Shown here: positions 10,874 to 63,000 of the stretch, piece after piece
How positions within the stretch are numbered: the stretch's first letter is position 1
Layout: each line of letters begins with the position of its first letter
IMG/VR virus record: IMGVR_UViG_3300036852_000134
Location: 18,865-82,864 of that record
Source: a virus
Reading direction: 5' to 3' (one strand)
Length of the DNA stretch: 64,000 nt
The notes under the pieces: model-generated
What the model was told of the DNA's origin: nothing
What the model saw: only the letters and a program-made list of their open reading frames with translations
Database searches by the model: none
Translations under genes and position numbers: made by a program

Positions 10874-11266
10874 TCAGCTCTTGATCCAGATGTAAAGTCT
10901 TCCACCGGTGAGCACGACGCCGGTATCGGCTGGCGCCACCCTGATCTTCAGGCGATCGCCAGCGAGAACCACGGGCACATAGCCCGTATCCGAAGCGTTC
11001 CCCGCGCCAGTAACGAAGCTCACGGCCTGCCGCGTTGCGCGCACGAACTGCGTGGCTAAGTTTGCCGCCGCTGCGTCATAGATCAGCCAGCCCACCCCCG
11101 TATCGAGCGTGTCAGGCAGCACGGAGACCTGGAGCGTGGCAACCTGGCCGGTGTCGGTGGAATGCCACCAGCGCAGCTGCTGGATTTCGCCCATCATATG
11201 CGGGCCAGTATCCTGGAAGGTGACACCTCCAGAGACGTTCACGTCGAAACGCTGACGGGTGATCAT
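10874..11266 (-). CDS. Putative small virion protein, five DTG motifs
   Basis: 130-aa beta-rich ORF in the late operon. Confidence 0.7.
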   Translation of the reverse strand: MITRQRFDVNVSGGVTFQDTGPHMMGEIQQLRWWHSTDTGQVATLQVSVLPDTLDTGVGWLIYDAAAANLATQFVRATRQAVSFVTGAGNASDTGYVPVVLAGDRLKIRVAPADTGVVLTGGRLYIWIKS

Positions 11267-11267
11267 G

Positions 11268-11360
11268 TCATTTCTTCTTGGGCTTGGGCTTCGGGGTTGA
11301 CTTCACAGCCTTCACAGGCTTCTTACTGGCGTAGTGGGTGACGGGTGCGGATTCAGCCAT
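11268..11360 (-). CDS. 30-aa basic peptide MAESAPVTHYASKKPVKAVKSTPKPKPKKK
   Basis: AGGAAAGAG upstream; fills the gap exactly, 1 nt before the next ATG. Confidence 0.55.
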   Translation of the reverse strand: MAESAPVTHYASKKPVKAVKSTPKPKPKKK

Positions 11361-12219: not shown

Positions 12220-12297
12220 TGTCCCTTTTCTGACAGTCAGTAACGATATTGTTACTTCCCGCGATCACTTTGTGACTTGATCCGACGTAGAACCGCC

Positions 12298-12325
12298 TTG
12301 CAGCGGCAGCCAGCCGTGCTATTAT
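12298..12325 (+). promoter_or_regulatory. Sigma70-like promoter for the 12550..13296 moron
   Basis: TTGCAG-16-TATTAT with extended -10 TG. Confidence 0.5.
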
Positions 12326-12549
12326 GTCCAATACGGACGGTCTCTCAGACCATCCGCCTCCCCCAAAAATCTGACACGAAGCGCGAAGGGCACCAGCCCG
12401 ACACGGTACGCGCGGAGCCGCAAGGCCTGTGATCGAGGTGAGAAGGGGGAGACCGGCGGAAACGGAACGACATCCGCCGGATGTTGCCGGAGGAGCGAGA
12501 GCCAACTCGCTCAACTCCGGCTAGCTCTAACGCAACTTGGAGATGCGTT

Positions 12550-13296
12550 ATGGCCTACTTCTTCTACCTCTTTCGCCGTCTCGTTGCAATCGCCCTTGGG
12601 CTGGCACTGACCGGTTACTCGGCTTGGTGCAGCTGGACGCATCAGGGAGACCTGATCGGCCCGCTTGCAGCGATCTCGGCAGCCGCGCTGCTCGCGTTCT
12701 GCGAGTATGCGTGGCGCGACCGTCGCTACGTTCACTTCGGGCTGCTTGGGCTGCTCGGACTGGCGGCGGCAGCAATCTCCGGCTCGATCGTGCTTGAGCG
12801 GGTTTCCCACACGCAGGAAGCCAGTTCGCAAAAGGCGCGGTCGGCCAATCTGCCTCGGACCGAAGCCCAAAAGGCTCTCACTGAGGCGTCAGCCGAGCTC
12901 AAGGCGGCGCAAGCCGAGACGAGCAAAGCATGCAGCTCCGGGCGTGGCCCTGTGTGTAAGGGTCTGGAGCAGCGGGAGGACGCGGCGCGGAAGCGCGTCG
13001 AAGATGCCCGCTCCAAGCTGGTTGGACTTGGTGCAGAAACCGCCGTAGACCCAGCGGCTGGCGTCCTGGGTGCACACGCTGAAACGCTCCGACTGGCTAC
13101 GCTGCTAGGCCTGCCTCTCTGGCTTGAATTGGCAGCTCCCGCCGTCCTCGCTTACGGATTCGCGCCGGCTCCCCGCAAGGTGGAGACGCCGAGGAAGAAG
13201 AGAAGGCGGCGTAAGGTGAAGCGGACCAAACCCGCACCGCCATCTAAGGCGAAGCGCCCGCACGGCGCCCAGTTGAGGGTGGTGTCTTCTCGCTAA
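12550..13296 (+). CDS. Multi-pass membrane protein with periplasmic coiled coil and basic tail (moron)
   Basis: Three N-terminal hydrophobic segments, CSSGRGPVC, a C-terminal TM segment and a K/R tail; GGAG RBS. Confidence 0.75.
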   Translation: MAYFFYLFRRLVAIALGLALTGYSAWCSWTHQGDLIGPLAAISAAALLAFCEYAWRDRRYVHFGLLGLLGLAAAAISGSIVLERVSHTQEASSQKARSANLPRTEAQKALTEASAELKAAQAETSKACSSGRGPVCKGLEQREDAARKRVEDARSKLVGLGAETAVDPAAGVLGAHAETLRLATLLGLPLWLELAAPAVLAYGFAPAPRKVETPRKKRRRRKVKRTKPAPPSKAKRPHGAQLRVVSSR

Positions 13297-13299
13297 CCC

Positions 13300-13328
13300 A
13301 AGCCCCGCTTCGGCGGGGCTTTTTTATT
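13300..13328. terminator. Rho-independent terminator between convergent genes
   Basis: AAGCCCCGC-TTCG-GCGGGGCTT followed by a T-run. Confidence 0.9.
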
Positions 13329-13593
13329 TGTGCCGCCGCTTGATCGTAGGCTCTCGGCAGAGCCGCCTGATCGTCTCCATCAGGCTTGTATACACTCCAC
13401 CATTTCGCAGAAGATGGAGGCGAAATTCAGCAACCGACTGGAAGTGGTCACGCCACAGTTTCGGAGGCTGCTCTTGCCTTCCTTTCTCAAGATCTTCGAG
13501 CTGTTGCTGCACATACCGATTGCGGAGTACGTATGCTGCATCGGCAGTGCGTAAGATCTCTGGAATTGATATCCGCTTAGGGATGATGCTCAC
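13324..13593 (-). CDS. Hypothetical protein
   Basis: 89-aa ORF ending at the terminator. Confidence 0.5.
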   Translation of the reverse strand: MSIIPKRISIPEILRTADAAYVLRNRYVQQQLEDLEKGRQEQPPKLWRDHFQSVAEFRLHLLRNGGVYTSLMETIRRLCREPTIKRRHK

Positions 13594-13681: not shown

Positions 13682-13837
13682 TCATCCGCCAGTCTGCCGC
13701 AATGTTTGCACGACCCAACCGCCGACGATGACGATCGCTGCAATCATTGCAAGCACCCGGTCAAACCAGCGCGGCCGTTTCGGACAGCTCGCGGCCACAT
13801 GCTTGTCTGAGAGACAAAGTGTGCAGAGCATCGTCAT
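13682..13837 (-). CDS. CCHC zinc-knuckle microprotein with C-terminal TM helix
   Basis: MTMLCTLCLSDKHVAASCPKRPRWFDRVLAMIAAIVIVGGWVVQ...; exact CX2CX4HX4C; AGGAG RBS. Confidence 0.65.
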   Translation of the reverse strand: MTMLCTLCLSDKHVAASCPKRPRWFDRVLAMIAAIVIVGGWVVQTLRQTGG

Positions 13838-13919
13838 TGCTCCTGGGGCTTTCCGCGTTCCTCCATTGGCCGTACCGCCTCTTTGCTCGTGATCGAGACT
13901 GGGTGTGTGCGGTCGTGGG

Positions 13920-14291
13920 CGATTGGGAGGAAAGCGAGAAGGGGAGCGGGGAGCCTAGCCTTTCGGCACCAGGACAGCACGTCTAGCTTAGCCATCCTGG
14001 CATTGGCCCCCGCATAACCCCAAGCAGAGGCCTTACGGCGGGTCCGCTGGGGAAAAGAGGCCGACCCCAACGAGGGGGCCGGGGACCTACGGCATGCCGT
14101 AGGCGGGGATAGGCTGAGCGGGCCGTGACCCGCTCAGTTGCTGCGGAAGACGGAACTGCCGCAGCGGGGAGGATTGCTCAAGGACCTAGGCAAAGCGCTC
14201 ATTGAGCCAAGCCTTGAGGGGTAGGTAGGGTGAACGACCTCGCGGCGCCGCGCAGATCACCCACCGTAGTCTGGCGCACGTCTACGCCAGA
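13920..14291 (-). ncRNA. Candidate structured RNA: nine tandem hairpins with C/U-rich linkers
   Basis: Stems visible by eye; G-U pairs and GAAA/GUAA tetraloops form on the minus strand only. Confidence 0.55.
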
Positions 14292-14305: not shown

Positions 14306-14491
14306 CTATTGAAGCCGCGAGAAAATCTCGAAAGCCTTGGCGTCCACCGCCTTGACCCAGCGCTCGTATGCTTTGCGATCGTCGGGGACGCGGACCAGAT
14401 CCGGGAGGAGCTCGCAAAGGGCGAGCCTCAGAGCCTGCTCCTGGCGCTGTTCGTCGGCCAGGATGATCTGATCTTCAAGCTCTTCGTGCAT
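14306..14491 (-). CDS. Small hypothetical protein
   Basis: 61-aa helical ORF, first after the late promoter. Confidence 0.5.
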   Translation of the reverse strand: MHEELEDQIILADEQRQEQALRLALCELLPDLVRVPDDRKAYERWVKAVDAKAFEIFSRLQ

Positions 14492-14624
14492 GAAAAGAAG
14501 GGCCGTGCCCTACCTCTTTTGCGGCTGCAGAGAACGGCCCGGAATTGAAGGAGGGTGCCCCGAAATGCAAAGCGCCGCCAGCGAGTTGCTGAGCGGCGCG
14601 GACAAATCGGGATCGTGGGAAAAA

Positions 14625-14699: not shown

Positions 14700-15356
14700 T
14701 CAGTCGTCGCCGAGCCTGAAGAACAATCGCAGGCGCCGCGCAACTTGCACAATCTCCTGCGTGCCGGCAGCAGACGCCGCGCTTGTTTCCGACCGATACG
14801 TGCTCAGGAACGCCCCGATCTTGTTCATGCTCCAGGCTTGATCGTCCCCCAGCAGGACGGGCTCCAGCGCCTGCCTGGCAGCTTCATCGCAAACCCACCG
14901 GCCGGATCGATCCTTTACACCGAAGGCGGCCATACGGGCTGCGTCGAAAATCCTTCTTGCCTGCAGCCGCTCGTCCGATGTGATGGACTTGCCCCAACTG
15001 GGCGCGGATCCGCCGCCATCGCCGTAGCGACCGACGCCAATGCTTGGCCCATCAGCCACGAAAGAGACCACCGCATAATACTGGATCGCGGTGCGCATGT
15101 TCGGCGTGATTCGGGGCGGCTCGGGATCCTTGCCCTTCCGCTCCTTCGACTTCGCGAGTTCCTCGATGCGAGGAACGATGGCGTGCGGCGATGCGAGGTG
15201 TGCCGCCATGCGAGACAACTCAACGCTGATCTTGCGGATCCGCTCTGGCGTCGGCGGCATCGCCGGATCCCCACGCCAGTTGAAGGGCTGGTCGGCGCCG
15301 CCGAGTTCGCGCTTGACGATCTTGTTGAGTGTGACTTCCCCTGCATCTCTCGTCAT
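14700..15356 (-). CDS. Putative late-transcription regulator (Q-position, DUF6456/GafA-like C-terminus)
   Basis: Last gene before the late promoter; ARRIFDAAR..AFG...LEPVL...ARRLRLFF. Confidence 0.5.
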   Translation of the reverse strand: MTRDAGEVTLNKIVKRELGGADQPFNWRGDPAMPPTPERIRKISVELSRMAAHLASPHAIVPRIEELAKSKERKGKDPEPPRITPNMRTAIQYYAVVSFVADGPSIGVGRYGDGGGSAPSWGKSITSDERLQARRIFDAARMAAFGVKDRSGRWVCDEAARQALEPVLLGDDQAWSMNKIGAFLSTYRSETSAASAAGTQEIVQVARRLRLFFRLGDD

Positions 15357-28535: not shown

Positions 28536-29159
28536 ATGAAATGGTGGGAACGACTAGGCCGCGTGGTGGAAGCACGCAAACTGTCCGTCGAGGAAATCTC
28601 GGCGCGCTCGGGCGTGCCTGTGAAGAGTGTGTACGGGTACATCAATGGTGACGTTGAGAATCCGCGTGGGGATGTCATCAAGAGACTGGCGGAAGCTATT
28701 GGTATGTCTGAGCAGGAGCTGCGCTACGGAAGTGGTCCCCAACACCTAGTCACAGCTAAACGCATCCCGTTGTTGGATATGCACAAATTGGGCAAGCTTA
28801 AGGTTGGAGAGAACCCTCTGTCACAGTGGGACGGGGTCTCTACGGCCGAAGTTCCTGTAGAGATTCCAGAGGGTTGCTTCGCCGTTCTCCTGGCTGACGA
28901 GAGCATGGAGCCAGAGTTCAAGAAGGGCTCAGTCATCATCTGCGACCCGAACGCGCCCATCATTCCAGGCAAGTACGTCGTCGTCGTCATGCCCGATAGC
29001 GAGGATGCCTTGTTCGGCCGGTTCAGGCCTGTGGGCTACAAGGATCTCCGGCGCTTTACGCTCATCCGAACCGGTGAGGACTATCCCGAGATCGAGTTCG
29101 GCGCGAAGGTGAAGGGTTTCATCATCGCCCGCGCCATCAAGCACGTCCGGGACATCTAA
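28536..29159 (+). CDS. cI: CI-like repressor (XRE HTH + S24-like domain)
   Basis: HTH SVEEISARSGVPVKSVYGYING; ESMEPEF..G..IICDP. Confidence 0.9.
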   Translation: MKWWERLGRVVEARKLSVEEISARSGVPVKSVYGYINGDVENPRGDVIKRLAEAIGMSEQELRYGSGPQHLVTAKRIPLLDMHKLGKLKVGENPLSQWDGVSTAEVPVEIPEGCFAVLLADESMEPEFKKGSVIICDPNAPIIPGKYVVVVMPDSEDALFGRFRPVGYKDLRRFTLIRTGEDYPEIEFGAKVKGFIIARAIKHVRDI

Positions 29160-31311: not shown

Positions 31312-31643
31312 CCATCTCCATCACCCTCACCCACTACGACCTCGGCCCGCTCAAGGTCCAGATCTGGGAAGAGGCGACGTGGCGCATGCGCCGCCGCATC
31401 TGGACGTGTCCCGATGATCCTGAGCTTGGGTCATTCGAGAACGGCGACTTCGAGGAAGCGCCCGTCACCATTGAGACGCTGTTGCTCGCGGCCCGCAACG
31501 ATCAGATCGCGAGCGCAACTACCCTCCCCCACAAGGGGGAGGGTCCCCCTCCCTTGTGGGGGGAGCTGAGCTTCCAAAGAGGGCGTTTGGAAGATGCGGC
31601 GGACCCCAGCGGCAGCGAATTCCTCCTCGCTGCCGCTGGGTGA
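31308..31643 (+). CDS. Hypothetical protein (MTISITLTHYDLGP...) whose 3' end runs through palindromic repeats
   Basis: GTGA coupling. Confidence 0.5.
   Translation: MTISITLTHYDLGPLKVQIWEEATWRMRRRIWTCPDDPELGSFENGDFEEAPVTIETLLLAARNDQIASATTLPHKGEGPPPLWGELSFQRGRLEDAADPSGSEFLLAAAG
31522..31565. repeat. Rhizobial REP/RIME-like palindromic element, two head-to-head units
   Basis: CCCTCCCCCACAAGGGGGAGGG followed by TCCCCCTCCCTTGTGGGGGGAG. Confidence 0.5.
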
Positions 31644-31749
31644 TGAAATTCAGGGTTGCCCGGCAACGGGCGAAACGGAGGCGGTTCGGTTGGCGCCCGC
31701 ACCCCGGCTGGACCGCCTCCGGTCTCAACACGAGAGGAAATTGAGTGAG

Positions 31750-31980
31750 ATGGCTGACGAGTTTCCTGACGAGACGGTGTTGCCGGACGATTACCCGATC
31801 TATGGCGACTACCTCTACGTGACCGACGGCAAGCTCTATCGCTCTGACTGGCACGGCATCACTGTCCGTCAGTTGAAGCGCCACGAAGGCTTCACGGAGG
31901 TCCGCCGCTGCAACATCGAGGCGAGACGAGAGGAGCACGAGAAACGGAAGGCTACGCAAGCGAACGGGGCTACGCCGTGA
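31750..31980 (+). CDS. Hypothetical protein
   Basis: GAGAGG RBS. Confidence 0.6.
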   Translation: MADEFPDETVLPDDYPIYGDYLYVTDGKLYRSDWHGITVRQLKRHEGFTEVRRCNIEARREEHEKRKATQANGATP

Positions 31981-42574: not shown

Positions 42575-43561
42575 TCAGGTTTCTGCAAATAGGTCCATCG
42601 TCTCGGTGTCCCGCTGCGATGGCCGCGTCGTCTTGATGCTCGCGTCGTAGTCCTCAAACCGCACGGCCCGATAGAGCCCGGTCACCACCCAGCGCTGAAA
42701 CCGCTTCAGGTCTTTGCGCTGGTGATCGTAGACCATGGGGTAAGGCCGAATGCCCCGCTCGACCATCCGGTGGAAGCGGTGCCAGATGCGGTCCCAGGTC
42801 TCGCGTTTGTCGTAGCCGATCAGCATGTAGGCCATCAGCTGCCTGCCAGGCACGCCGACAGCCTCCAGGGTATCGACGCCGCGGAAGAACACCTCCTCGT
42901 CCTTGAGGTTGTCCCAGGCGGTGTAGAGCCGTCGCCGGCCGAAGCCGTCATCGCGATACTCGATACTGGCGATCGCCGCGGCGACCTCGGGCGTCATGGC
43001 CCGTACGTTGATGCCCTGTGTGAAGGACACCCGGAAACCGCCAGCCCTGATCTCGGCCACGCGTTCACGCCACTCCGGCCCGCCGAAGAAGTCGTTGTCG
43101 AGCAGGTGCAGGTGCTTCGGCCACGGCACGCCACGCCAGATGCCGGCGATGGTGTTCTCGTGCCGCGGCTTGCCCTCCTTGGCCGGTACCACGCAGAACT
43201 TGCAGGCGAGACGGCACCCACGTTGCGTGAAGCCGATGCTGGCGTCGAAATCAGGGTAGAGGCTGTAGTCGAGCGCCTGGCTCTCGCCCACGATCGGATC
43301 GACCGTCGCCGAGCTCGCCGTGCCGGTCCCGCCGATGATGGCATCGGGAAACTCCAGTCGCATGCGCTCAACGCGAGCCTCGGAGAACTTGAAGATCGCG
43401 CTGGCGTAGACGTGCGCGTAGGCCGGCTCGTCGAGATGCCGGTACGGCGTGCGCGTGAAGTGGATATCGTCACCCCGCGCACGATGGAAGCCGGCCAAGC
43501 GCATCAGCGCGAGGTTCGGCAGCTTTCCATCTAGCTGGGTGATGCGCACGGCTGGCACCAA
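42575..43561 (-). CDS. Radical SAM protein
   Basis: TQRGCRLACKFCVVP (CX3CX2C); DGKLPNLALM; LLDNDF. Confidence 0.9.
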   Translation of the reverse strand: MVPAVRITQLDGKLPNLALMRLAGFHRARGDDIHFTRTPYRHLDEPAYAHVYASAIFKFSEARVERMRLEFPDAIIGGTGTASSATVDPIVGESQALDYSLYPDFDASIGFTQRGCRLACKFCVVPAKEGKPRHENTIAGIWRGVPWPKHLHLLDNDFFGGPEWRERVAEIRAGGFRVSFTQGINVRAMTPEVAAAIASIEYRDDGFGRRRLYTAWDNLKDEEVFFRGVDTLEAVGVPGRQLMAYMLIGYDKRETWDRIWHRFHRMVERGIRPYPMVYDHQRKDLKRFQRWVVTGLYRAVRFEDYDASIKTTRPSQRDTETMDLFAET

Positions 43562-51020: not shown

Positions 51021-54000
51021 TCATCGCGGTTCTTGCGTCGTGCCTGGCGGCAAAACTATCGACGGCATGGTGGTTGGATCATCCGGCCGGCGATAGGTTG
51101 GACTTCTGCGATCCCTGAATTTCCTATCCCAAGCCCCTTGCAACCCTAGCATATTCTCTTGCTGGATCATAGCAACAACGCGCCCTTGTATTTCTATCCA
51201 CCTAGCGCGGTCCTGTTGATAATCGCCTATCGGAGCTTCCGTGACATCGTCTTCCAGCCTGTTGCGTGAGAAGCGGCGCAGCAACTCTTCGTACAGGCCA
51301 CTGTGAGACGCCTGGAGTTCACGGTAGAGCGCTGCTGGATCGCGAACGGGACGCCCAGCCCAACCTGGAACGCCCGTGTCGCGCAGGGCATTGTACATCT
51401 CAATGGCGGTGATGCGCTGCATGAGGTTCTCGACCTGAGTGCGAAGCGCAGGCGAGAGAGCGATGGGAGTGCCCCGCGTTCCTGCGTCCATGCTGATTAC
51501 GCCTTGTCCTGCCATCTCGCGCCGCAACTGGAACAGGACGCGGTCGATTTGCTGGGCTCGGTTCAGGGGGTGATGGATGCGATCCCTGGTCGGGAAGTGC
51601 TGCATCAAAACAGAGTAGATGGTCCGGTCCGGCGACAAACCAACAAGGTAAGTGCGCAATGCATCGGCGTTCGCGCCATCACGCATGAGCTGATTATAGC
51701 CCGCAGCAGCCTGAACGTATGGGCTTTGGCCATCTCTCATCAGGCGCCTGACTTCGAGGATAGACTCTGTGCTGCGGTACGGGTCCCAGGTGAAGCGATT
51801 TACCATCGGGCCTATGATCGGCACCTCCCGCCAGTCGTCGGTTCTCGGTCCGCGGCCCAAGTAGTTGGAGAAGAGTTGCACCTCACGACCCCAATAGCCG
51901 AGCTGGGAGTTGAGCGCGTAGTCGATGACAACCGGGGAGGCCTGTATGCCTATTCCGTTCAGCGCCTCTGCCCACTGCCTCGCGAACTCAGATGAGAACG
52001 GGGTATGACGCATGTAGGGCGGCAGTTCACGCAAACCGAACGGAGTGAGTGGGCGCCCCGTTCTTGCATCCACGCCATACCGCAGCGCTTCCCAATCCCG
52101 TAGAACTTGCGGTGTAAGCGGAGGCGTATGAGTAGCGACGATACCGTCTCTGATCTTCTCGGCTGCGCGCGGGTCCCCACGACGCACTAGATCCATCAGA
52201 GCCTCGGTGATGATCGCCGGCATGCCGAACTCGAACCGCTTCAGCCTGACCCATACTCCGAACATCTTGAACACCCAATGAGTGTTCTTCACCTCTCTGT
52301 TGTTGTCGGCGTATTCCTCCGGATCGTCACCGCCACCGTTTAGCATGGAGATCGACGCTCCCATCGCTGCGACGATCGACAGGATGACCCAGGAACGAAT
52401 GCCGCGTCGCATGGTCCGCTCGTCCGCCTTGGAGTACATGCTCTCAAACTCAGTCGGCCCAGGATTGCCGCGACGGCGAAGCATATGGCGGCCCCACATC
52501 TTCAGGGCTTCAATGTCGGTCTTGCCCATCGTCCAGCGTCCGACGGCTGCACCAGTGAGGGCGCCAGCACCCATCGCCCAACCGACCGGACCACCTAAGA
52601 CGGCAGTCGCAGCAGCCGCACCGCCAGCGCCCAACAGCCCGCCTTCAAGCATGGGGATCTGGATAATCCTGCCGCGGTCGCCTTCCACCATCCACGTCTG
52701 CCGGTAAGCCTTAGAGATAGCCTGCACGTTCCCGTTGAAAAAAGCCGTCATCCGCATAATGGCACCTGTCAGGAACCCGCGCCGGTCAAACGGCAGCACA
52801 TCGTTGGCCGTGAACACACCCTCGCGCATGGCGTCAATCAAAGGAAGGTTGGGGTCATATTGCAGAGCGCGGCGCGTGGCGTAGCTAGGAGTGCCTAGAG
52901 CCTGCCTAGTGATGTAATCGGCAACGCCGCGCCGCCCTGCGGTCTCGGTGAACTCTGAGACCTTGGCAAACACGGCTTCGGCGCCGGCTCCGAACAGAAG
53001 GCGCCCAGCCATCATGCCACCGGAGAAGCCGAGCGTGGCGCCCACAACGGGGCCGACAGCTGGCGCTGCGACTACGCCACCAAGACCGCCAGAGAGAGCG
53101 CCGACTGTGCCGCCGATGGCCTTACCAAGACCACGACCGATCCGAGTCGAAAGCGCCTTGTCCGCCTCCTTCAACTGCTGGATGGAGAACATCAGGTCCG
53201 CTCTGATAGCGTGGAGCTCGGCCATGCGGACAGCAAAGTCAGGCGACTTGCGATCGAGCGCCTTCATCCTGCGACGTGCAGTTTTCAGCTGGCCCTCAAG
53301 TCGCGCGATGCTTTCGTCCCCCCGCAGATGGCGTGCCAAGCGCTCGCCGATGGCGCCGCCAATCGAGGCGCCTGCTGCACCACCAAGGGAACCGCCGACC
53401 AAGCCTCCAACAACGGGACCGGCGACTGTGCCGAGCGTGGCGCCAGCGGCAGCACCACCAAGAGACGTTCCGGTTCCTGCCACAGCGCGGATGTCAACGG
53501 TCTGGTAGCCCTTGTTGCGCAGGTCCGAGAGGTCGAGGTTGCGTCGGTTGCCGCTACGTTCGGCAATTGACGCCGTCAACTGGCCGCCGCCGATCAGGCC
53601 AAGCCTGTCCTGCATCTGTGCCACGTCGGACGGCTTGATGCCGAACATCTGCATGAACGCGCGAAACTTCGGATAGCTAGACAGTTCGTGCCAGGCGCCG
53701 CGAGCATGCGTGATGATGGGTGGCGCTCCGGTCAACCACCAGGACATCTGCATGTCGCCAGCGACGTTCCCTAGCATGTAGGCTGGATGCAGGATGACGC
53801 CAGCGCGTAGAACCGCCGCAGGAGCGGCAACCATCTCGACGAGAGCCCCGCTCATGCCACGGCCGAGTGTGTTCATGGCCGCGAGCAGGCGGCGGCCATT
53901 CTCCACGTCGTTGAAGCGGACCAGTTTGCGCTCTCCCTTCTCGAAGAAGGGGAGCAAGATGGCGCCCTTACCTTTGTGTGTCGGGTCGTAGAGGATGTGG

Positions 54001-57000
54001 AGCTCGTTGTCCTGGATGTCGCCTTCCATCTGAAGGGCCATAGCCCGAGCGTCCGCCTCGTCGTATCCAAGATTCTTGATGGCTACGGCGATCTTCTCGA
54101 TCGTGCGCTCATTGAGCGGAAGCGTCTCCTCCTTGGTGATGCGCTCGACCACCTGTCCACCGCCTGGACCTGCGGTGTCGGACAGATTGGCGAATGCCCT
54201 GACCATGTCGTTGCGCTGAATAACCTCGGCAGTCGCATAGGCATCTCGCGCCATAGTGGCGAGCACGTTGACCACGGGGCGCTGAGAGCCCTTGATCTGC
54301 TTGAAACCCCCGAAGGTCCCAAGAGCTGAAACGCCGGGCGGAACAAAGGCACCTTCCTCCGCATCAAACTTGCGGTTGAACGGCGAGTAGAACTCGCGCC
54401 GCTTGGAGTACCTCTGGAACGCCTCATCGGTCATGAGACCGGCCTGCCACTTGAGCGTCAGCAGCCGGTGCAACCACTCACGTGCCATCTGCGACCCGCG
54501 CCTGTATCGCGGGTTGGCCTGCTCGATATCCTGGATCGCCTGCCAGTATTCCGCGAACGGCGTCATGCTGGGCTCGGACTCAAGCGAGGGCGCGCTGTCG
54601 AGCGTGGCCAGCATCTGTGCGATGTCCGGCGAGTTGTAGTATTGGTTGACTAGGGCAGCCCACTGCGCTGCCTCTGGCTTGTTGTGCCGCTTCGCCCACA
54701 GCGCCCAATAGACAATGCCGGTCTGCGCCTCAATGTACCCGCCGAAGCGGTCTAGGTTCTTCTCGGACCACTGGAAGTAACCGGTCCCCCCCATCGCCTC
54801 TTGGATAGCATCGGTCAGGGGCGGACCGCTTGGCGTCAACGAACCGTAGTCCGTCACGCCGTTGACAACCAACTCATGCCCGATTTTGAACGCCTGCGGG
54901 AACATGCGGAAGTGGTAGTGGGGGAGGTCATGTTTCCTGAAGGTGATCGGCCGACCATCGGCGCCGCGGATGTTGTTATCAAACATGATCTGCTGCAGAT
55001 GCTGCTGCATCTTCAGCGCAGGATTGGTGAGGTCCATGACATTGTAGGAGAGCGTGCCTAGCCACTGCTCAACTACCTCGCGCTTGTCGCGAACCTCGTA
55101 GAACTCCTGGATCTGCTGCAGGGTGGTCGGGTCTCTGGTGGACGCAACGTTAGCCGTCAGCCGCTCTGTAGCCGTGGCGAGGCGATACGCCTTGTAGTTC
55201 GCCGACACCACCTCCAGCTGCACCCTCTCCAGATCCTGGAGCATGGCGGGATCTTGGGCGTCGAGGAACTCCTCGAAGCCGACGAATACTCCTGGCATCT
55301 CCCGCTTTACGGTGTCGGGATCGGTGATGTAGCGGCGGAAGAATTCGGCGAAGGCTTGGGAGAGCTGTGCCGGTGGGACGGTGGGTGCCGTCCGAGGCGC
55401 TGGCGTTCCCGTGGGCGAGTAGCGAGCCTGCACGTAGGCCGCGAGACCTGCGGGATCGGCAGGCGCTGCGGTAGAGCCGAGCGGCTGCGTGCCGATGATG
55501 TCGCCGATCAAGGCCTGTGCGACCGTCCGTCCCAGTCGGCGCTCCAGCGTGCGGCTGGCGATGGCGGCTCTTGCAGCGTTGTCGTAGTTCTGGACGGCCT
55601 GCCAGGCTCTGGTGGCTTCTGCGGCCTCTACGAGGGTGCGCTGGGTGTCGGCGTCGAGATCGACGCCTGAGTAGCCGGTGGGGGCGATCTGCGGCAGCGG
55701 CGTGTCGGGAACCGGGGGAACACCCAACTCCTCGGCGTGCTGCTGGAGGAACGCCTGCATGGGGGCGCCGAAGACGCGCTCGATGTGGTTGCCGCCTGCA
55801 CGGGCGATGGCGTCGATGTCGGTGGCGATCCTGACGCGGGCGACGCCGGCATTGGCGTCGTACTGGCTGCGCACCGAACGCTGAGGACGGAAGCCCCACG
55901 TCCTTCCACCCGCCCTGTCCCTCACCCTCATGCCGTAGAGGCCCTGGGTGGTGGTCATACCAAGAGCCGACTTCAAGTCGGAGATGATGTCGGCTAGGCC
56001 CCTTACCTCGCCTTGAGAGGCGGGCGTGGTGGGGAGCATCGGGGCGCCTGACCCAGGTGGCGGATTGCCTGGAGGAGGCTGTCCCTGGAAGGAGGCGAGC
56101 AATACGGGGGAGCCTTCCTGGGAAGGATCGAAGGCGGCATCGACCGAGCGTATATTGGCGGGGTCGAAGACGATTGCGAGGTCACCTTCGATATACCCAT
56201 CGAAGCCTCGGCGCGTCAGTTCGGCATTTACATCCCTACTGGAGACGTAGCCGACACCTCTTTGAGACTTCAAATCTGCCTCAGCTTGGTCATTGTCGGC
56301 TGGCGTCGCAAGGCGCTTTGTGCGAATATACAGAGGCATAACAGAAGGTTCACCGCCAGCACGCGCGGAGATACCAGCATAGCGTGAAGCTTCAGCCAAG
56401 TCCGTGGTCATGTAGATGCCGGAAGATCCCAATCCCGGCTTGAATTGGTCGAACGCAGCCGCCGTCCCGTGGTACCACACCCTACTCGTATCGAACCCCA
56501 TTTCCTCGGCTCTAGCCTTCCTGGCTTCTGGGGACATGTCGAGGGGAGGCGTGGAAGAGAAGGAGGCGAGAGTTTGCCCCGGTAGCTGCCTCGGCTTCGG
56601 CGCCAGCGCCGCCTTGAGCGCGTCCACCATGAACTGCGCATCTTCGGGGTCGGAGAAGCGGGCGCGGTAGGCATTGACCGCCTCCGCCGTGATAGCCTTG
56701 GAGTCGAGCCCGTGGTCCTCGATCACGGCTGCCGCCTTGCGCATGACAGCGAGGGCGACGTTGGCGCGAGTGTCCACGTATCCATGTGGCAACGGGAGAT
56801 CGGAAAGGTAGCGCTGGATAATGGCCGCCACTTCCTGGGGATGATCCTCCATGTCTCGGAACGTGCGGGCGAGGCCATCCAGCGCGGAAGCATCCTCGTA
56901 GGAACCCTCGACGTTGGCGACTGCCTCGGCCGCCAGCGCCTCACGCTCGACATCGAGCGCATCAGCCCGCGCCCCGGTTGCTCTCTCGGCCTCCCGGAAT

Positions 57001-60000
57001 AGGCGCTGGAAGCGCTCCGCCTTGGCCCTGTCCCCGCCGAAGGACTGGACGAGATCATCGAATTCGCGGGCGCGCACATCGGCTGCGGCTTGCGCAAGCT
57101 CTGCCCCGGTTGGCGGGTCGATCTCACCTTGTGCCAGCCGCGCGATGGCGCCTTCCTCGTGGAAGGCAGGCGGCATCCGGCCTTGGAAACCTTGACCAGA
57201 GACCGACGTCAGCGAGTACCTCTCCTCCCTCCTTGCCTCTGTGAAGGCTTCTTGAGGGATGGAGGACTTTAGACGGGAGAGATGGGAAAGGGCGGAGGAG
57301 AGACGCGGGTCCGCGTTTTCTGAGGGTAAGGCGGGCTTGCCAGACTCCAATTCGTCGGTGACGAAAACATCGACGCGATGCGGCTTGCCGTCGACATCAA
57401 GCGACTTGATGCCATCAAAATGAGCAGTTAGTCGATCCCACACTTCTACCAGGGCGGGACCCTGCAAGTTTGTGTCGAAGCGAACAACAAAGTCGTAGTC
57501 GCTCGCCTCCTGGCGCGGTTTCCCAGCGGCGCGGCTGCCGACGAAGTACACATCGTCAATGCGGAACTGGTCGCCAACACTGCTGTTGGCCACGATGTCA
57601 CGCGCTTCGCGGAGTAGGCGCTTCTGAAACTCCGCCACGGCGCCAGTAGAGACCGCCTCCGCAAGCACCGCCTCCGCGAATTCCACCGCCCGTGGCGAAG
57701 CCCACATCCCCCCGAACATTTCACCGGCATTGACGTGGAATTTCACCCGATCAGGTGCAACTTGCAGCCAATACTGGTATCCTTGCGGAGTGAGCCAGCC
57801 CTTGTGGGAGAGAGGCTTGCCAAGATCGTTGGCCTCGATTGCGGCGACGATTGCAGGGATGCTGGAAGCGTCTTCCGCACGGAAGAAGGTCAGCTCCCAG
57901 GAGCCGTCTGGCTGCTCGGAGACGATGAGGGAGGTGGATGGAGCAGAGCGGGCGGATGCAGCCAAGATTTCAGGCAAGTCCATTGAGTCAAGAAGCGGAA
58001 CCGCACGCTGATACGCGAAACGTGGAAGTGCACCCGCGGCGTCGGCTAATTGGAAAGCCTCTCGGCGCTCAACAAATCGACCAGCGCTTGTTGTGAAGCC
58101 ACTATCATACTCATCGGCAATGATGGCGTCCGTGCCTGCTTCGTTGTTCTCTTGTTCAAACACCCTGGAGGCGGCCATAGCGATGTCCGCGTGCGCCTCG
58201 CCGTCCTCAAATATCCGACGGTCGTGACCACGCATACGGATGGCGGCGCGCACAGGAATCTCCGTCGCCGCTGCCGGCTCCAACGCCGAAACCTTCGCCT
58301 CCCTGGCTTCGGCCACACCATACGTCCTCAGCCTCTCCCCGCCTTCCTTTACCTTCTCCGTTACGGTTCCATCGAAGCCGGGGAGGGAGAAGGGGCGGGA
58401 CTCGGGGGAGGGGCGGTCGGAGAACGAGGCAAGGTCTGTTCCCCGAACCCGCTTCACAACGTTCTCGGCTGCCTTCCTAAGAGGTTCAGCATATTGAGCG
58501 GCTACCGTCCCAGCGATCTGTTGCGCCAAGATCGCTGGATTGTCGTAGATGTAGTTCGGCGCTTCGCTTGCAATGGCATTTGCTGCACTGGAGACGTTCT
58601 GCGCTGCCTGAGAGGTGAGAACACGGCGGATCGTGTCCGTGATGTCAGATAACGCCGCAAGATCAGTCCCGCCCTGGAAACTCCTAATAGCCGGGAACAG
58701 CCCTCGTGCCTCCTGCCCTTCCTCTGAGTTGAGGTGGGCTTGTGATGGAGATGGCGGGTTTGGGAAGGGGTCGAAGGTGGGCTCGCGGCGGCCGGCACGG
58801 CTGGCGGTCTCACCTGAAGCCATGCTGCGGAACACATCGTTGTAAGTCTGGAAGCCCAAGCCGTTCAGCGCGTTCCTGATCGCCTCAAAGAACTTGACGA
58901 TGCGCTCGAACCAGGAGTCGATCTTCGTGCCGAAGGAGGTTCCATCCGCCCACAGCTCCGCCAGCCTCGCAACCCGCTCCTGATCGATCAGTTCCTCAAC
59001 GCGCTGGTTGATGTTCCCGGTGAAGCCGGTCTCACGCATCATCTGGCGGTAAACCTGCCGATAGATGGGAACGCCAGGGATCACCTTTCCGGTCGAGTGG
59101 TTGAAGACTGTGATCTGGCTGTCGATGCCGATTTTCTTTGCGCGCTCGACAACAACCTGCCACTCTTGCGGGGTAAGCAGAGTGCCATAGGCGCCGCCGG
59201 GAAGGCGGCCATGTTCGCGTAGGGCGTGGACAACCTCATGAAACCCTTTGACCAACATCGTGCGGTAGGACGTGGCGCCGGCATCGGTGTTCAACGCGAC
59301 CTGGAGAACTCGGTCGAAGACCCGCGATTTACCCTCGGTGAAACCGAAGTTCGCGTAAGCCGACCGCCCTCCGATGTCGATGCGGTCAACAACCCGGACG
59401 GCAATTTCAGGTGGGAGCATTTTACGTGCCCACCGCTCCAGGTGGGCCACGAACTCGGGGAGCCTAGCCGCGAACGCCTCGGTGTATGGGGGCGGATTCT
59501 GGCCTTCTTCAAGCGCCGCCATAACGACGGTCTGCCATGAGTCCTCAACCGTCTCCTGTCGCCCCTTGGCGCCAGAGACACGGAAGCCCTCGAAGCGAAT
59601 GACCGTAGGATGCTCCCGCCTGAACTCTTCCCTCAAGGCTCTGATATCCGAGAGAGACAGCCGCTCTCCTGGGTTGACCTTGATGTAGTTGATATATGCG
59701 GTGTCGTCGGGCGCGCTGGTGCTTTCGACTGCGAAGTCAACGTAGCCGATCTGCTTGCCGCCGCGCTCGATTGCCATCAAGGTGCCGCGGCCGGGCTCGC
59801 TGGCCTTCGGCAGCTGCTCATTGGGGCGGAAGTATCGCAGCGTAGGCGCTTCTCTCCCGTCTTCCGGACCTAACCGGGACCGCTGGGTGCTAAGCGCAAA
59901 AAGCGCCAAGCCCTCCCTCTGGACCTGCTCCCTCACCTTGTCTGTTATGGGGAATACGGTGAAGCCGGAACCCAGGTCTCGCCCATCGACTGGCGACTGG

Positions 60001-63000
60001 ACGTGATCCACCTTCTTCGGCTTGATGGAGGCGTCCATGCCCTTGAGGATCTTGGCAAGCGTCAACGGCGCGATCTTGTCGTAGAACTCCTCGTTGCCTT
60101 CCTCGGAGCCTTGCGGGTTGTAGGAGAGGACGGTGGCCCCTGAAGGGATGGAGATGGAGTCAGCGCCTGAGGCGATAGCCTGACGGATGACGTGCTTCAA
60201 CGTGAAGGTGAGCCAGGCGTCGGTGGTGTTGACGAAGGGATGGGATGGGGTGGCGGCCTGCGCGGTGCGAAGTTCGGCATGAAGAATAAAAGCATCGTTG
60301 TTCAGTGCCGCCCACTTCTTGCCGATCGGATCGCCCCTGTTCGACAGTGCGCGCAACCGATCCTGGGCATCCTCAACGCTCTGCTTGGCGCGATCACCAT
60401 CCGGCAGCGAAGCCATGTACTCATTGCGCGCTGCGAGTTGCGCGTCGTTCGCCTTCTGCCATTTATCTTGCAGTTCCTGTATCTTCCTCTCATCCCGTGC
60501 CCCTGCCGGTATCTCTCCTCTCTGCCTTGCAGAGGAGATGGCGGCGGAGACTTCGGACTTGAGATCTGCGGGCAGGTCGCGGTAACGCTTGGTCTTGGCA
60601 CCTAGCGCAATCGCTTCCAGGTCAAGCTGCGCCGGGAGACTATTTCTTTGATCGTCTAGAAACCCGACCGCTTTGGCGCTCAGTGCCTCCGGCGTCATGC
60701 CGGCACGTTGCCGTATCCTTGGATGCCATGCGTTCTGCGACACGTAGTTGAGCGTGCGCGCCACAACATCTGGGTTCGCATCCTCATCGCGTGCCAGACC
60801 CATTTCCGGACCCAGCGACCGCAGCCAAGTGAGCGGCTCGCCCATGAGATAAGCGTCACGATCCTGGACGGCGGCCTTGTGCCGCTCTTTCAGATTCGCA
60901 ATCCGCGTCTGCGTCTCAGGCTTGGACGGATCGAATAGGGACGTTGCCACCGCATCCCTAGACCGCTTCAGGATCTCCTGTCCCCAGTCGGACTGGACCT
61001 GAGATACCGCAAAGGTGGTCTCATCCCCCAGCTTGTTGAGGGAGGACATGATGTTGGAGATGACGTTGGGCTCGGGGAAGTGGCCGGAGCGGAACATGCC
61101 AACACCTTCGGCCTCTTCAATGCCGCGATCCTGCAGCGCCTCAAGCCTTGCGCGCTCCTCAGCGTTGACGTAGTTGCCCCAGCCACCTCCTGGCGGAATA
61201 TTGTACTTGCGCTTCAGGGATTCGAGGTACTGCTCATAGGTCTGAGTGACCGTCGGCAGGTGCAGCACCGTCTCCCGGTACGTCGGGTTCCCATCGTCCT
61301 TGGCGAGGGAGTGGGAGGACCATTTGGCGGGGCCTTTAGCGTCGTCAGGGACCGTCGGCAATAACCCACGAGCGTCGCGTTCTCCTCGCAAGATGGTGTC
61401 AGGGTCGCCGCCGTATCGCGCCTCCCTCACCTCCACCCTGTTCTCTCTCAGGAAGGAGACGAGATCGTCTCTGGAGACGAACGCTTCCGCGCTTACGAGA
61501 CGCGAGCGGCCACCCGGTCGATACTCCACAATGGACGCGCGAATCTCTGTCGCGCCAGCGTCTATCGCCTTCCGCGTTCTGTGCGCGCCATCGAGGACCT
61601 CCAACTTGTCCTGCCCCGGCATCCGGAGAAGGATCACTGGCGTCGCCGCATTGGCATCCGACGGTCGCAAACCATCGTCAACGGAGCTGTCCAGGTTTAT
61701 GGTGCTCACCGGGACAACATGGACCTGGTGCGGCTTTTCTAGCGCCTTCAGCGCCCGGTAGAACGCTTGCGCATCCGCGTCATTCTCATAGTTGATCGTT
61801 GCATTCGCTACAGTCTTGGAGTCGGAGGCGTCCTCTGGGCTATGCGAAAATTTGGGGACGGACTTGCTCTCAAGGAATTGCGTGAGGCCGAGCGCCTCAA
61901 TCTCGTTCTTTACTCCTGTACCAGCCTTGAGCAGATGCTGGAGAGCCTGTTCAGGAGTGCCCTTCTTCTGCGGCCAGGCCTTGGCGGCTTCGAGCGCCTT
62001 GGAGTGGTAGCCGAGGGCGTCGAACTCTACCGCCTGAGACTGCCCATCCGTTGTGGCAGACTGAAACGATGCGAGGCTTGCCCCGATGCTGGCGTCAACC
62101 GCCTGCCGCTCCAGAAACGCCCGGTGGTCTTCGGATCGCTTCGCGATGGAGGCGAACGCCGTGTCCTTCTTGGCGTTCTTCGCAACCGGCGTTCCTGCAA
62201 TGGCGGCAAGGTCGCGCACGTCGGCTGCCTTGAGGGACTTGTCCGCCTTCGCTCGGTCCAAGACAGCCGCATGCGATGGCAGGCCGAGACGGGACAGCAG
62301 TTCGGTAGCGTAGGCTCTAACTACCTCTGATACCTGCCTTCCCGTCTGCACCTCAAGGGCACGGATGGAGCCGTCAACACGATCCTGGGGGGAGACGGAG
62401 AGATCAGGGCCAGCCGGTGTGATTGGTGCTTGAGGCGTTCGGCGGTAGGCGCCGTCCTTGGTCTGGCGGAGGAGGCCTTCGTTCAGGGCTTCCTGCCGCA
62501 ATACTTCCATCTGCTCGGGCGTCGTTCCGAGACGTGCCTGTATCGTGCCCCAGTTGAGCGGGAAGCGTGAGGCTAGTACGCCTCGGAGCTGCTGTCGCTG
62601 GGCTGTGGTGGGCTCGGTGATGGGCTGGGCTGCTGGCTCTCCATCCCGAGCATCGCTGCGAGATTGCTCAGCCGTTCCTGCTCCTGCGGGTCCTGCTCGC
62701 TCGCTGCCCACGCCAGCAGGTCTTGCACCGCCTGTGCTCGCTGCTCCGGGCTCAGCCGTTGCTGTCGGGGCTGCGGCTGCTGGTCTGGCATCTGCGGTTG
62801 GGGCGGCGGCGCTGGCTCCTCGACCACCGGCATCGGCTGCGGCTGTAGCGCCTGCGGAGGCTCTGGCGGAAGCGGCTGGGGCGCCACCCGGCGCTGGCGC
62901 GGCTGCGGCTTGGCTTGGTCTGCTGGCGGCTGTGACGGCTTGCCCGGCAGTCGCGCCCGTGGCGCGCGCTTGTCGCTCTGCTTCGTAGGCTTCCCAGGCA

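Follow-up and report, generated by a model that had tools for sequence, protein, structure and literature searches.

A strand-specific array of nine RNA hairpins between the replication and structural modules of a temperate phage, with a possible role in late transcription

The stretch of phage DNA analysed here, hereafter the window, comprises 64,000 nucleotides (nt), corresponding to positions 18865-82864 in one contig of 82,864 nt (IMG/VR record IMGVR_UViG_3300036852_000134) that represents an 82.9-kb genome. Where the replication module gives way to the structural module, the window contains a gene-free gap of about 462-466 nt that follows the gene for a 61-aa protein and holds nine consecutive hairpins (H1 to H9, 14291-13946 on the minus strand; positions are those of the window unless stated otherwise). 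The array is a real and unusual RNA feature, specific to the coding strand, that belongs to no described family, and the precedents discussed below suggest that it may be involved in the transcriptional control of late genes. We tentatively favour the possibility that the array, as the untranslated middle part of a late transcription unit, forms a cis-acting barrier to transcription, which would be read through by antitermination. Processive antitermination of late genes is well studied in lambdoid coliphages; its occurrence in Alphaproteobacteria, in gene transfer agents (GTAs) whose long, hairpin-rich non-coding blocks proved to be strong terminators, was demonstrated only recently.

The array was first noticed in an inspection of the letters without database searches (the sequence-only reading), which described nine back-to-back stems, a perfect 18-bp palindrome and two GNRA loops. 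All nine stems fold on the minus strand, at positions 1-5 nt from those given in that reading, and each hairpin is dominant in its own ensemble, with individual z-scores from -1.6 to -5.6 (Table 1); the palindrome is present in H6, and the two loops are GCC-GUAA-GGC in H8 and GCC-GAAA-GGC in H9. Comparison with shuffled controls, which had been proposed as a check, came out in favour of the array: the 381-nt stretch folds on the minus strand with a minimum free energy (MFE) of -184.8 kcal/mol (z -6.25), a value reached by none of 100 shuffles, compared to -166.4 kcal/mol (z -1.52) for the same 381 nt on the plus strand. The asymmetry between the strands amounts to -18.9 kcal/mol, against +1.8 +/- 5.8 kcal/mol for shuffles and their reverse complements (z -3.6; 0 of 120 shuffles), and the minus-strand fold includes 14 G-U pairs versus 6 in the plus-strand fold. 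The claim that the structure is peculiar to the minus strand is thus borne out, and the asymmetry, together with the surplus of G-U pairs, argues for selection on the coding-strand RNA and against a cluster of palindromes in duplex DNA. A DNA-level element, such as a replication origin, a packaging site or a group of palindromic protein-binding sites, is a very improbable explanation: H1, H4, H5 and H6 are indeed perfect palindromes in DNA and the replication module adjoins the array, but the fold asymmetry would be unexpected for duplex DNA sites, there are no iterons, direct repeats or A+T-rich segment, and the genes for the small and large terminase subunits (terS/terL) are 16 kb distant. 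The same distance makes a packaging-related RNA, one of the functions initially suggested, unlikely.

Among all minus-strand windows of the genome, the array ranks first in the number of non-overlapping hairpins, with 8-9 per 400 nt compared to a mean of 4.2-4.9 (standard deviation ~0.85). No tandem or direct repeats were found in the array with Tandem Repeats Finder and a repeat finder; the stems are unrelated in sequence and there are no regularly spaced repeated units, in agreement with the initial statement that this is neither a CRISPR array nor a tandem repeat. The lack of such units also rules out repeats of a type III toxin-antitoxin (ToxI-like) system. A scan against the Rfam 15 families, likewise proposed earlier, yielded no match anywhere in the window when gathering thresholds were applied, and relaxed thresholds brought up no family for the array either, so that it fits no described family; the best sub-threshold match inside the array was to Hrs13 (20.5 bits versus a threshold of 52). 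We also considered remnants of tRNA or tmRNA, of which ARAGORN detected none, and a group I or II intron beside the HNH endonuclease gene, for which Rfam gave no match. Translation of the region, which would have spoken against an RNA element, is not indicated: the array is overlapped by five open reading frames (ORFs; 41-79 aa), and these have a pattern of G+C content at third codon positions (GC3) that is not coding-like and match no Pfam family, which leaves the gap free of credible ORFs. One possible antisense target was examined for H1, an exact 17-nt complement at 43401-43417 in a radical SAM gene (42575-43561, minus strand); given that 4 of 83 real genome windows have a match of this length, it is not significant and probably due to chance.

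The pyrimidine-rich linkers noted in the sequence-only reading proved more regular than described there. The motif UCCCC (TCCCC in DNA) occurs six times in the gap, compared to 0.42 +/- 0.76 per window genome-wide, an enrichment of ~14-fold reached by only 5 of 1648 windows, and the extended form UCCCCG occurs four times (~32-fold enriched); in four cases the motif lies directly 5' of a hairpin. Among the bases left unpaired in the fold of the array, C is the most frequent (62, against 47 A, 46 U and 23 G). Past the array, a 78-nt window covering the end of H9 and the tail (13972-13895) has a C/G ratio of 2.64, above the genome-wide 99th percentile of 2.14, and, being untranslated, C-rich and G-poor, may by its composition qualify as a site for Rho utilization (rut), for which ~70-80 nt of such RNA in unstructured form are expected. 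The further suggestion that the linkers resemble anti-Shine-Dalgarno sequences was not borne out, because the ribosome-binding sites of this phage are of the GGAG/GAGG/AGGA type, the complement of UCCCCG (CGGGGA) is present in none of 107 such sites, and CCUCC is found in two linkers only.

Read along the minus strand, the region consists of the gene for a 218-aa protein, a promoter-like site, a leader with two terminator-like hairpins, the 61-aa gene, the nine hairpins, the C-rich tail and two small genes; after these and a convergent plus-strand gene come the structural and packaging genes (Table 1). The array had been placed at the head of the late operon, which is correct inasmuch as it lies at the boundary of the replication and structural modules, but one small gene precedes it, and two small genes and the convergent gene follow before the structural genes are reached. 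There are experimental precedents for a regulator gene that is followed by a promoter, a leader with a terminator, a first gene and a hairpin block, and these make a cis-acting barrier the most likely interpretation. We propose that unmodified RNA polymerase would pause in the hairpin array, or stop there and be released, with Rho loading on the ribosome-free C-rich linkers and tail, and that polymerase made resistant to termination at the promoter would read through; the 218-aa protein is a candidate for bringing about this conversion. An alternative already raised in the sequence-only reading, namely that the array itself is a processive antiterminator RNA, is not favoured by the context of promoter, terminator-like leader, first gene and array, which points instead to a target of antitermination.

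The alphaproteobacterial sigma-70 consensus, as known from Sinorhizobium promoters, is CTTGAC-N17-CTATAT, and the promoter-like site just behind the 218-aa gene agrees with it at 10 of 12 positions, a resemblance at the level of sequence only. Five such matches are present on both genome strands, three of them antisense inside genes, and the site at 14654-14626 is the sole intergenic sense-strand match among those checked (-46456 left out). The leader of ~125 nt (14485-14622, minus strand) forms two strong hairpins (-58 kcal/mol, z -4.73), and the hairpin at 14540-14500, followed by UUCUUUUC, could serve as the intrinsic terminator that is expected in the leader of a Q-type system. A transcription barrier is consistent with the minus-strand-specific fold, the position of the array in the window densest in hairpins on the minus strand of the genome, the ORF-free gap, the C/G ratio of the tail and the 14-fold enrichment of UCCCC, as well as with the position of the promoter-like site and of the terminator-like leader hairpin before the 61-aa gene. 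Further support comes from two related loci (L002 and L007, described below), from the unidirectional gene order of a temperate phage and from the weak structural resemblance of the modelled 218-aa protein to Q21, AlpA and sigma region 4.

Table 1. Predicted features of the hairpin array and its surroundings, listed along the minus strand
Feature	Position	Strand	Description
218-aa gene	14700-15356	-	closes the replication/early block; coding-like GC3 pattern
Promoter-like site GTTGAC-N17-GTATAT	14654-14626	-	fifty bases downstream of the 218-aa gene; a second TTGACT before it
Leader hairpin L1	14557-14614	-	G+C-rich inner stem (GCGCCGC...GCGGCGC), then UUUGCAUUU
Leader hairpin L2 with UUCUUUUC tail	14492-14540	-	terminator-like; bears the ribosome-binding site for the 61-aa gene and runs up to the ATG of that gene
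61-aa gene	14306-14491	-	first gene past the promoter-like site; G+C by codon position 0.76/0.29/0.74
H1	14270-14291	-	9 bp, loop GACG; MFE -14.2 kcal/mol, z -4.95
H2	14229-14265	-	16 bp with 4 G-U pairs; MFE -19.8 kcal/mol, z -2.87
H3	14177-14218	-	13 bp with bulges, 14-nt loop; -15.4 kcal/mol, z -1.64; weakest of the nine
H4	14140-14165	-	UCCUCCCCG directly before; -13.8 kcal/mol, z -3.85
H5	14114-14137	-	perfect 10 bp; -18.2 kcal/mol, z -5.60
H6	14085-14104	-	perfect 18-nt palindrome plus closing G-U; UAUCCCCG before; -12.1 kcal/mol, z -3.50
H7	14061-14082	-	UCCCCG before, CCUCUUUUCC after; -15.0 kcal/mol, z -2.71
H8	14018-14052	-	inner GCC-GUAA-GGC; -20.0 kcal/mol, z -3.10
H9	13946-14013	-	three-way junction: 9-bp closing stem, 11-bp arm (12-nt loop), GCC-GAAA-GGC; -39.4 kcal/mol, z -4.34
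C-rich, G-poor tail (~65 nt)	13880-13945	-	UCCCCUUCUCGCUUUCCUCCCAAUCGCCCACGACCGCACACACCC...; resembles a Rho loading site
51-aa gene (49 aa from ATG 13831)	13682-13837	-	CX2CX4HX4C zinc-knuckle motif and hydrophobic C-terminal helix
89-aa gene	13324-13593	-	function unassigned; no family match
Intrinsic terminator, canonical	13300-13321	+	belongs to the convergent gene; directly past the stop of the 89-aa gene
Convergent gene	12550-13296	+	N- and C-terminal hydrophobic segments, coiled-coil-like middle, very basic tail; no family match

The closest precedent is the terGTA element of the Caulobacter GTA, ~450 bp of G+C-rich imperfect inverted repeats that immediately follow the gene with which the structural cluster begins; the element acts as a strong terminator and is passed only by GafZ-modified polymerase (PMC11150451). 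Both elements are G+C-rich non-coding blocks of ~450 nt that contain imperfect inverted repeats and follow the first gene of a structural/packaging unit (here, a 462-nt gap with nine hairpins after the 61-aa gene), both are preceded by a long 5' leader, and the setting is probably alphaproteobacterial in both cases. They differ in that terGTA is built from three 150-bp direct repeats, whereas the nine hairpins described here are unrelated in sequence, and in that the first gene encodes the large terminase subunit in Caulobacter and a 61-aa protein in our phage, in which no homologue of GafZ or DUF6456 was detected; moreover, termination at terGTA has been established experimentally, whereas at the array it is predicted from the sequence alone.

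A second parallel is provided by the Bartonella GTA (BaGTA), where the Q21-like antiterminator BrrG acts at a promoter with an 864-bp non-coding attenuating leader (10.1101/2024.11.20.624540). The arrangement of BrrG and of Q/PR'/tR' in phage lambda, with a regulator gene that ends the early block, a sigma-70-type promoter immediately after it, a terminator hairpin in the leader and co-directional late genes, has a putative counterpart in the window. However, the 218-aa protein resembles Q21 and AlpA only weakly in fold (Z 4.5 and 3.4) and shows no sequence similarity to them, no Q-binding or pause element could be identified, and a single terminator in lambda contrasts with an array of nine hairpins after the first gene in our phage. 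With respect to the linkers, the best analogy is the nutR-tR1 region of lambda, in which C-rich single-stranded Rho-binding segments (rutA and rutB) are split by the boxB hairpin within an untranslated stretch. Both regions combine C-rich segments and hairpins in untranslated RNA, which in lambda only polymerase modified for antitermination can pass, but lambda has one hairpin and two rut halves, as opposed to nine hairpins, six UCCCC motifs and a ~65-nt tail, and no boxA, boxB or N-like protein was identified here. Should the array prove to be a barrier in a true temperate phage, it would tie the GTA systems to their phage ancestors, indicate that such barriers can be built not only from repeats but also from unrelated hairpins and C-rich linkers, and flag the family of the 218-aa protein as candidate new antiterminators.

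To gain insight into this protein, we searched for its homologues and modelled its structure. It has 17 homologues with 46-88% identity, and 39 clusters at the 50% level were retrieved in a profile search; no matches were obtained in Pfam, in PHROG or in sequence and profile searches of PDB. The first AlphaFold model, based on 17 sequences, was poor (predicted local distance difference test score, pLDDT, 65.7), whereas the second, based on an alignment of 46 sequences, was confident (pLDDT 80.6; predicted template modelling score, pTM, 0.71). In an exhaustive structural comparison against 48,161 chains, the Q21 antiterminator (6jnx_P) ranked first and third with the two models (Z 4.4 and 4.5, both weak), the alignments spanning 111-113 residues, that is, nearly all of Q21. 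Similarly weak matches were found to AlpA (7xyb_G; Z 3.4) and, over residues 125-216, to many sigma region-4 domains (Z 3.5-4.3). In the ESM Atlas, the neighbours of the protein are hypothetical phage proteins, and one cluster (score 0.90) carries the DUF6456 annotation on 25% of its members, which we regard as a lead only; DUF6456 is the annotation of GafA homologues (PMC9638019). Overall, the 218-aa proteins form a small, phage-borne family, a candidate for a late-gene regulator and possibly for an antiterminator, with the likeness to Q21 and AlpA serving as a weak lead rather than an assignment.

Several observations weigh against the array being such a barrier. It does not look like a set of intrinsic terminators: the number of U residues in the 10 nt after H1 to H9 is 2, 2, 2, 1, 2, 0, 5, 3 and 4, so that a G+C-rich hairpin is combined with a U-tract only at H7 (CCUCUUUUCC) and, weakly, at H9, and the other seven hairpins are unlike intrinsic terminators. 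Nor is the array built from direct repeats, as terGTA is. The two small genes and the convergent gene with a terminator of its own lie between the array and the structural genes, and because of this convergent gene the array may control only the two small genes. The putative late promoter, proposed from its letters, was not flagged in a scan for E. coli-type promoters. With regard to the 218-aa protein, Foldseek returned nothing for either model, all Z-scores of the exhaustive comparison are below 5, a range that the aligner itself rates as possibly reflecting a common arrangement, and the DUF6456 profile (PF20057) found nothing in the phage genome even at E-values up to 10, which speaks against a regulator of the GafZ/GafA type. 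Finally, in the relative L002, terS and terL follow 75 nt after the homologue of the 61-aa gene, with no array in between.

So far, the array has been seen in a single genome. No copies were found with blastn and megablast among 50,697 phage records or among the IMG/VR sequences scanned for H5 with a free loop, and blastn against 401 genomes from the family of the metagenome-assembled genome (MAG) that holds L007 retrieved only 32-nt G+C-rich, chance-level matches to H2. Searches at the protein level were similarly sparse. The 61-aa and 218-aa proteins had no tblastn match in the phage records, and searches of IMG/VR with the 61-aa, 218-aa and 89-aa proteins and with alignments A1 and A3 gave no matches among the sequences covered; the RNase H-like and HslV-like proteins led to four loci (L002-L005), all without the array. 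Hidden Markov model searches, against 401 genomes each, recovered with A4 (family of L007) only the L007 genome itself and with A3 (its order) none, and a scan of metagenomes yielded a 1.3-kb contig that ends within the 218-aa gene. The 61-aa protein has nine homologues with 61-82% identity. The closest relatives of the flanking proteins are found only in metagenome assemblies, at 87% identity for the 218-aa protein (P0021, on a contig of 40.2 kb), of which P0024 is a further relative, and at 74-77% for the 61-aa protein (74% in P0038, on a contig of 61.9 kb), to which P0036 is also related. No window resembling the array was detected in the five related loci.

Two of these loci are informative with respect to the layout. 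L002, from IMG/VR, encodes a homologue of the 61-aa protein (45% identity), which is preceded by a hairpin and UCUUUUCG, similar to the hairpin and tail in our phage, and here heads terS and terL. L007, recovered in a scan of genome collections from a contig binned with a Xanthobacteraceae MAG, encodes a homologue of the 218-aa protein (54% identity) that is directly followed by TTGACA and four consecutive hairpins, unrelated in sequence to our array and more stable on the sense strand (z -4.2) than on the antisense strand (z -2.1); then come 2.4 kb of unrelated genes, including a putative fragment of an insertion sequence (IS), and the PurM-like gene. Within the L007 segment that replaces the array region, an 85-aa ORF (11090-11347) reads by eye as a transposase remnant (...RYVDEFAFRWDTR...), and there is a small ribbon-helix-helix-like gene, which fits the notion of the junction as an insertion hot spot.

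This variability raises the question of whether the array is a functionless junction scar, in which hairpins and terminator remnants have piled up at a hypervariable module boundary via illegitimate recombination and moron insertion. We consider this doubtful but worth weighing. What lies between the 218-aa or 61-aa gene and the structural genes is indeed unrelated in the two relatives, with 75 nt before terS in L002 and 2.4 kb with the putative IS fragment and other genes in L007. Past the stop codon of the 61-aa gene there is an orphan AGAGGTA that resembles a ribosome-binding site, which suggests that another gene may once have followed. Furthermore, strong G+C-rich hairpins are also present in other intergenic regions of this phage, and by GC-corrected MFE of 300-nt windows the array ranks only 7th of 1656. 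However, a scar would be expected to show neither the strand-specific surplus of G-U pairs (z -3.6) nor a 14-fold motif enrichment confined to the linkers, nor nine tightly packed hairpins that do not interfere with each other, and an array of sense-strand hairpins is found in L007 at the corresponding position.

The properties of the linkers could alternatively be explained if the array gave rise to a stable trans-acting RNA, or to several from one precursor, whose UCCCC(G) linkers would bind a factor or G-rich RNAs in the manner of CsrB/RsmZ; such linkers might be bound by Rho, by a protein of the cold-shock, S1 or KH type, or by the zinc-knuckle protein encoded next to the array. We hold out a limited chance for such an RNA. 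In its favour are the 14-32-fold enrichment of a motif located in the linkers of a hairpin array, the well-defined ensemble of every hairpin, the two GNRA loops on identical GCC/GGC stems, and the CCHC zinc-knuckle motif encoded by the next gene. A transcript of ~235 nt would result if a weak promoter-like TTTTCT-17-TATATT just upstream of H1 (14325-14297) were used together with the terminator-like tail of H7. In addition, the segment 14106-14263 (end of H2 through H5) recurs without a single difference as a 158-nt contig of an unrelated drinking-water run (2024), in which the remainder of the 2.1-kb stretch was not found; this contig could be the same phage at low depth or a conserved element. 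Against a trans-acting RNA are the lack of an Rfam match and of homologues in the collections searched, the absence of the array from the relatives L002 and L007, the match of the H1 promoter at only 8 of 12 positions, and the lack of complementarity between UCCCCG and the ribosome-binding sites of the phage.

The known RNAs of this kind are only partly similar. The sponge RNAs CsrB, RsmY and RsmZ expose GGA motifs in hairpin loops. With these, the array shares many hairpins, a repeated short motif and a non-coding nature, but its motif is UCCCC and located in the linkers, and the corresponding Rfam models match only the unrelated terminator at 13300. The Cuckoo/CcsR (alpha-r14) small RNAs (sRNAs), which occur in tandem in Alphaproteobacteria, carry CCUCCUCCC in the hairpin loops of homologous repeated units. 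Like these and the C-rich-seed sRNAs RsaE/RoxS, the array has pyrimidine or C-run motifs of the type that pairs with Shine-Dalgarno-like G-runs, but its units are unrelated to each other and match no Rfam family, its motifs are found in the linkers, CCUCC occurs only twice, and no ribosome-binding site of this phage contains the complement of UCCCCG.

A further, more novel function is also conceivable, if in our view unlikely: the hairpins would be spacers that present at least six single-stranded UCCCC motifs to a C-binding host factor, for instance as a decoy or trap for Rho that protects late transcription, or the array would modify RNA polymerase in cis, as the put RNA of phage HK022 does. 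A decoy RNA that presents UCCCC would be a new phage strategy.

The sequence downstream of the array bears on a further explanation, in which the element governs the stability, processing or translation of the message: the hairpins would keep 3' exonucleases off the 61-aa message or let the flanking genes differ in stoichiometry, and translation of the 49/51-aa gene would be lowered through pairing of its purine-rich leader and ribosome-binding site with the pyrimidine tail. The 5' part of the tail can indeed pair with this leader, the arms 13926-13941 and 13849-13864 being 81% complementary, and the predicted fold also hides the GGA of the GGAG at 13843-13840; furthermore, a 10-codon ORF (ATG 13866) terminates in an ATGA that overlaps the start of the 51-aa ORF. 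Nevertheless, we deem this explanation fairly unlikely, since nine hairpins are far beyond what functions of this kind would require, long duplexes of the RNase III type are lacking, the predicted fold of the tail and leader (13840-13945) has a z-score of only -2.25, and pairing between pyrimidine and purine tracts easily arises by chance.

Both small genes that follow the tail are probably real, because the variant contigs differ from them mainly at third codon positions; the comparison was made with a low-depth contig from the soil run for the 51-aa gene and with an 83%-identical contig for the 89-aa gene. The 51-aa protein has the spacing of a retroviral-type zinc knuckle, with a weak Pfam match below the cut-off (AIR2-like ZnK4, E 0.008), and a membrane-anchored zinc knuckle would be unusual for a phage protein. 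The convergent plus-strand gene at 12550-13296, lying within a minus-strand block and equipped with its own terminator, looks like a moron; past it are the PurM-like gene, the tail fibre gene and the remaining late genes.

The genome itself is that of a temperate phage, as indicated by the integrase gene and the gene for a CI-like repressor (28536-29159, plus strand), which is opposed to the minus-strand early genes. As is the case in lambdoid phages, early, replication and structural genes share one direction. Within its first 19 kb, the contig encodes on the minus strand the small and large terminase subunits, the portal, the major head protein and podovirus-type tail tubular proteins, and the window adds a pectate-lyase-type tail fibre, the PurM-like/phrog_3704 protein, an endolysin and a replication block with a split SNF2-type helicase, a methyltransferase, RNase H-like and HslV-like proteins and HNH endonucleases. 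The contig ends in an exact 127-nt terminal overlap, which we interpret as an assembly overlap from a circularly closed contig that carries no information on the physical ends. Only one sequencing run, a soil metagenome, contains the complete stretch, and no RNA run is among those listed as holding it; in variant contigs of the soil run that cover the 61-aa and 51-aa genes, the alignment (at least 80% identity) ends short of the array. An ORF of 4297 aa (51021-63914, minus strand) begins 86 nt from the contig end and has faint PHROG matches to proteins of unknown function only. Hairpin promoters for an N4-like virion RNA polymerase were considered and rejected, the 4297-aa protein having no such PHROG match.

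Other strongly structured regions exist in this genome. One of them (12220-12550) separates the PurM-like gene from the plus-strand gene, and the 300-nt windows at 12437-12936 (plus strand) are among the top five of the genome by GC-corrected folding energy. The two most stable 300-nt windows are those at 31437-31836 and at contig positions 11001-11400 (L006). The former contains hairpins of the CCCUCCCCC/GGGGGAGGG type and a perfect 14-bp hairpin between plus-strand genes, and the latter spans the gap from the major head gene to the gene upstream of it.

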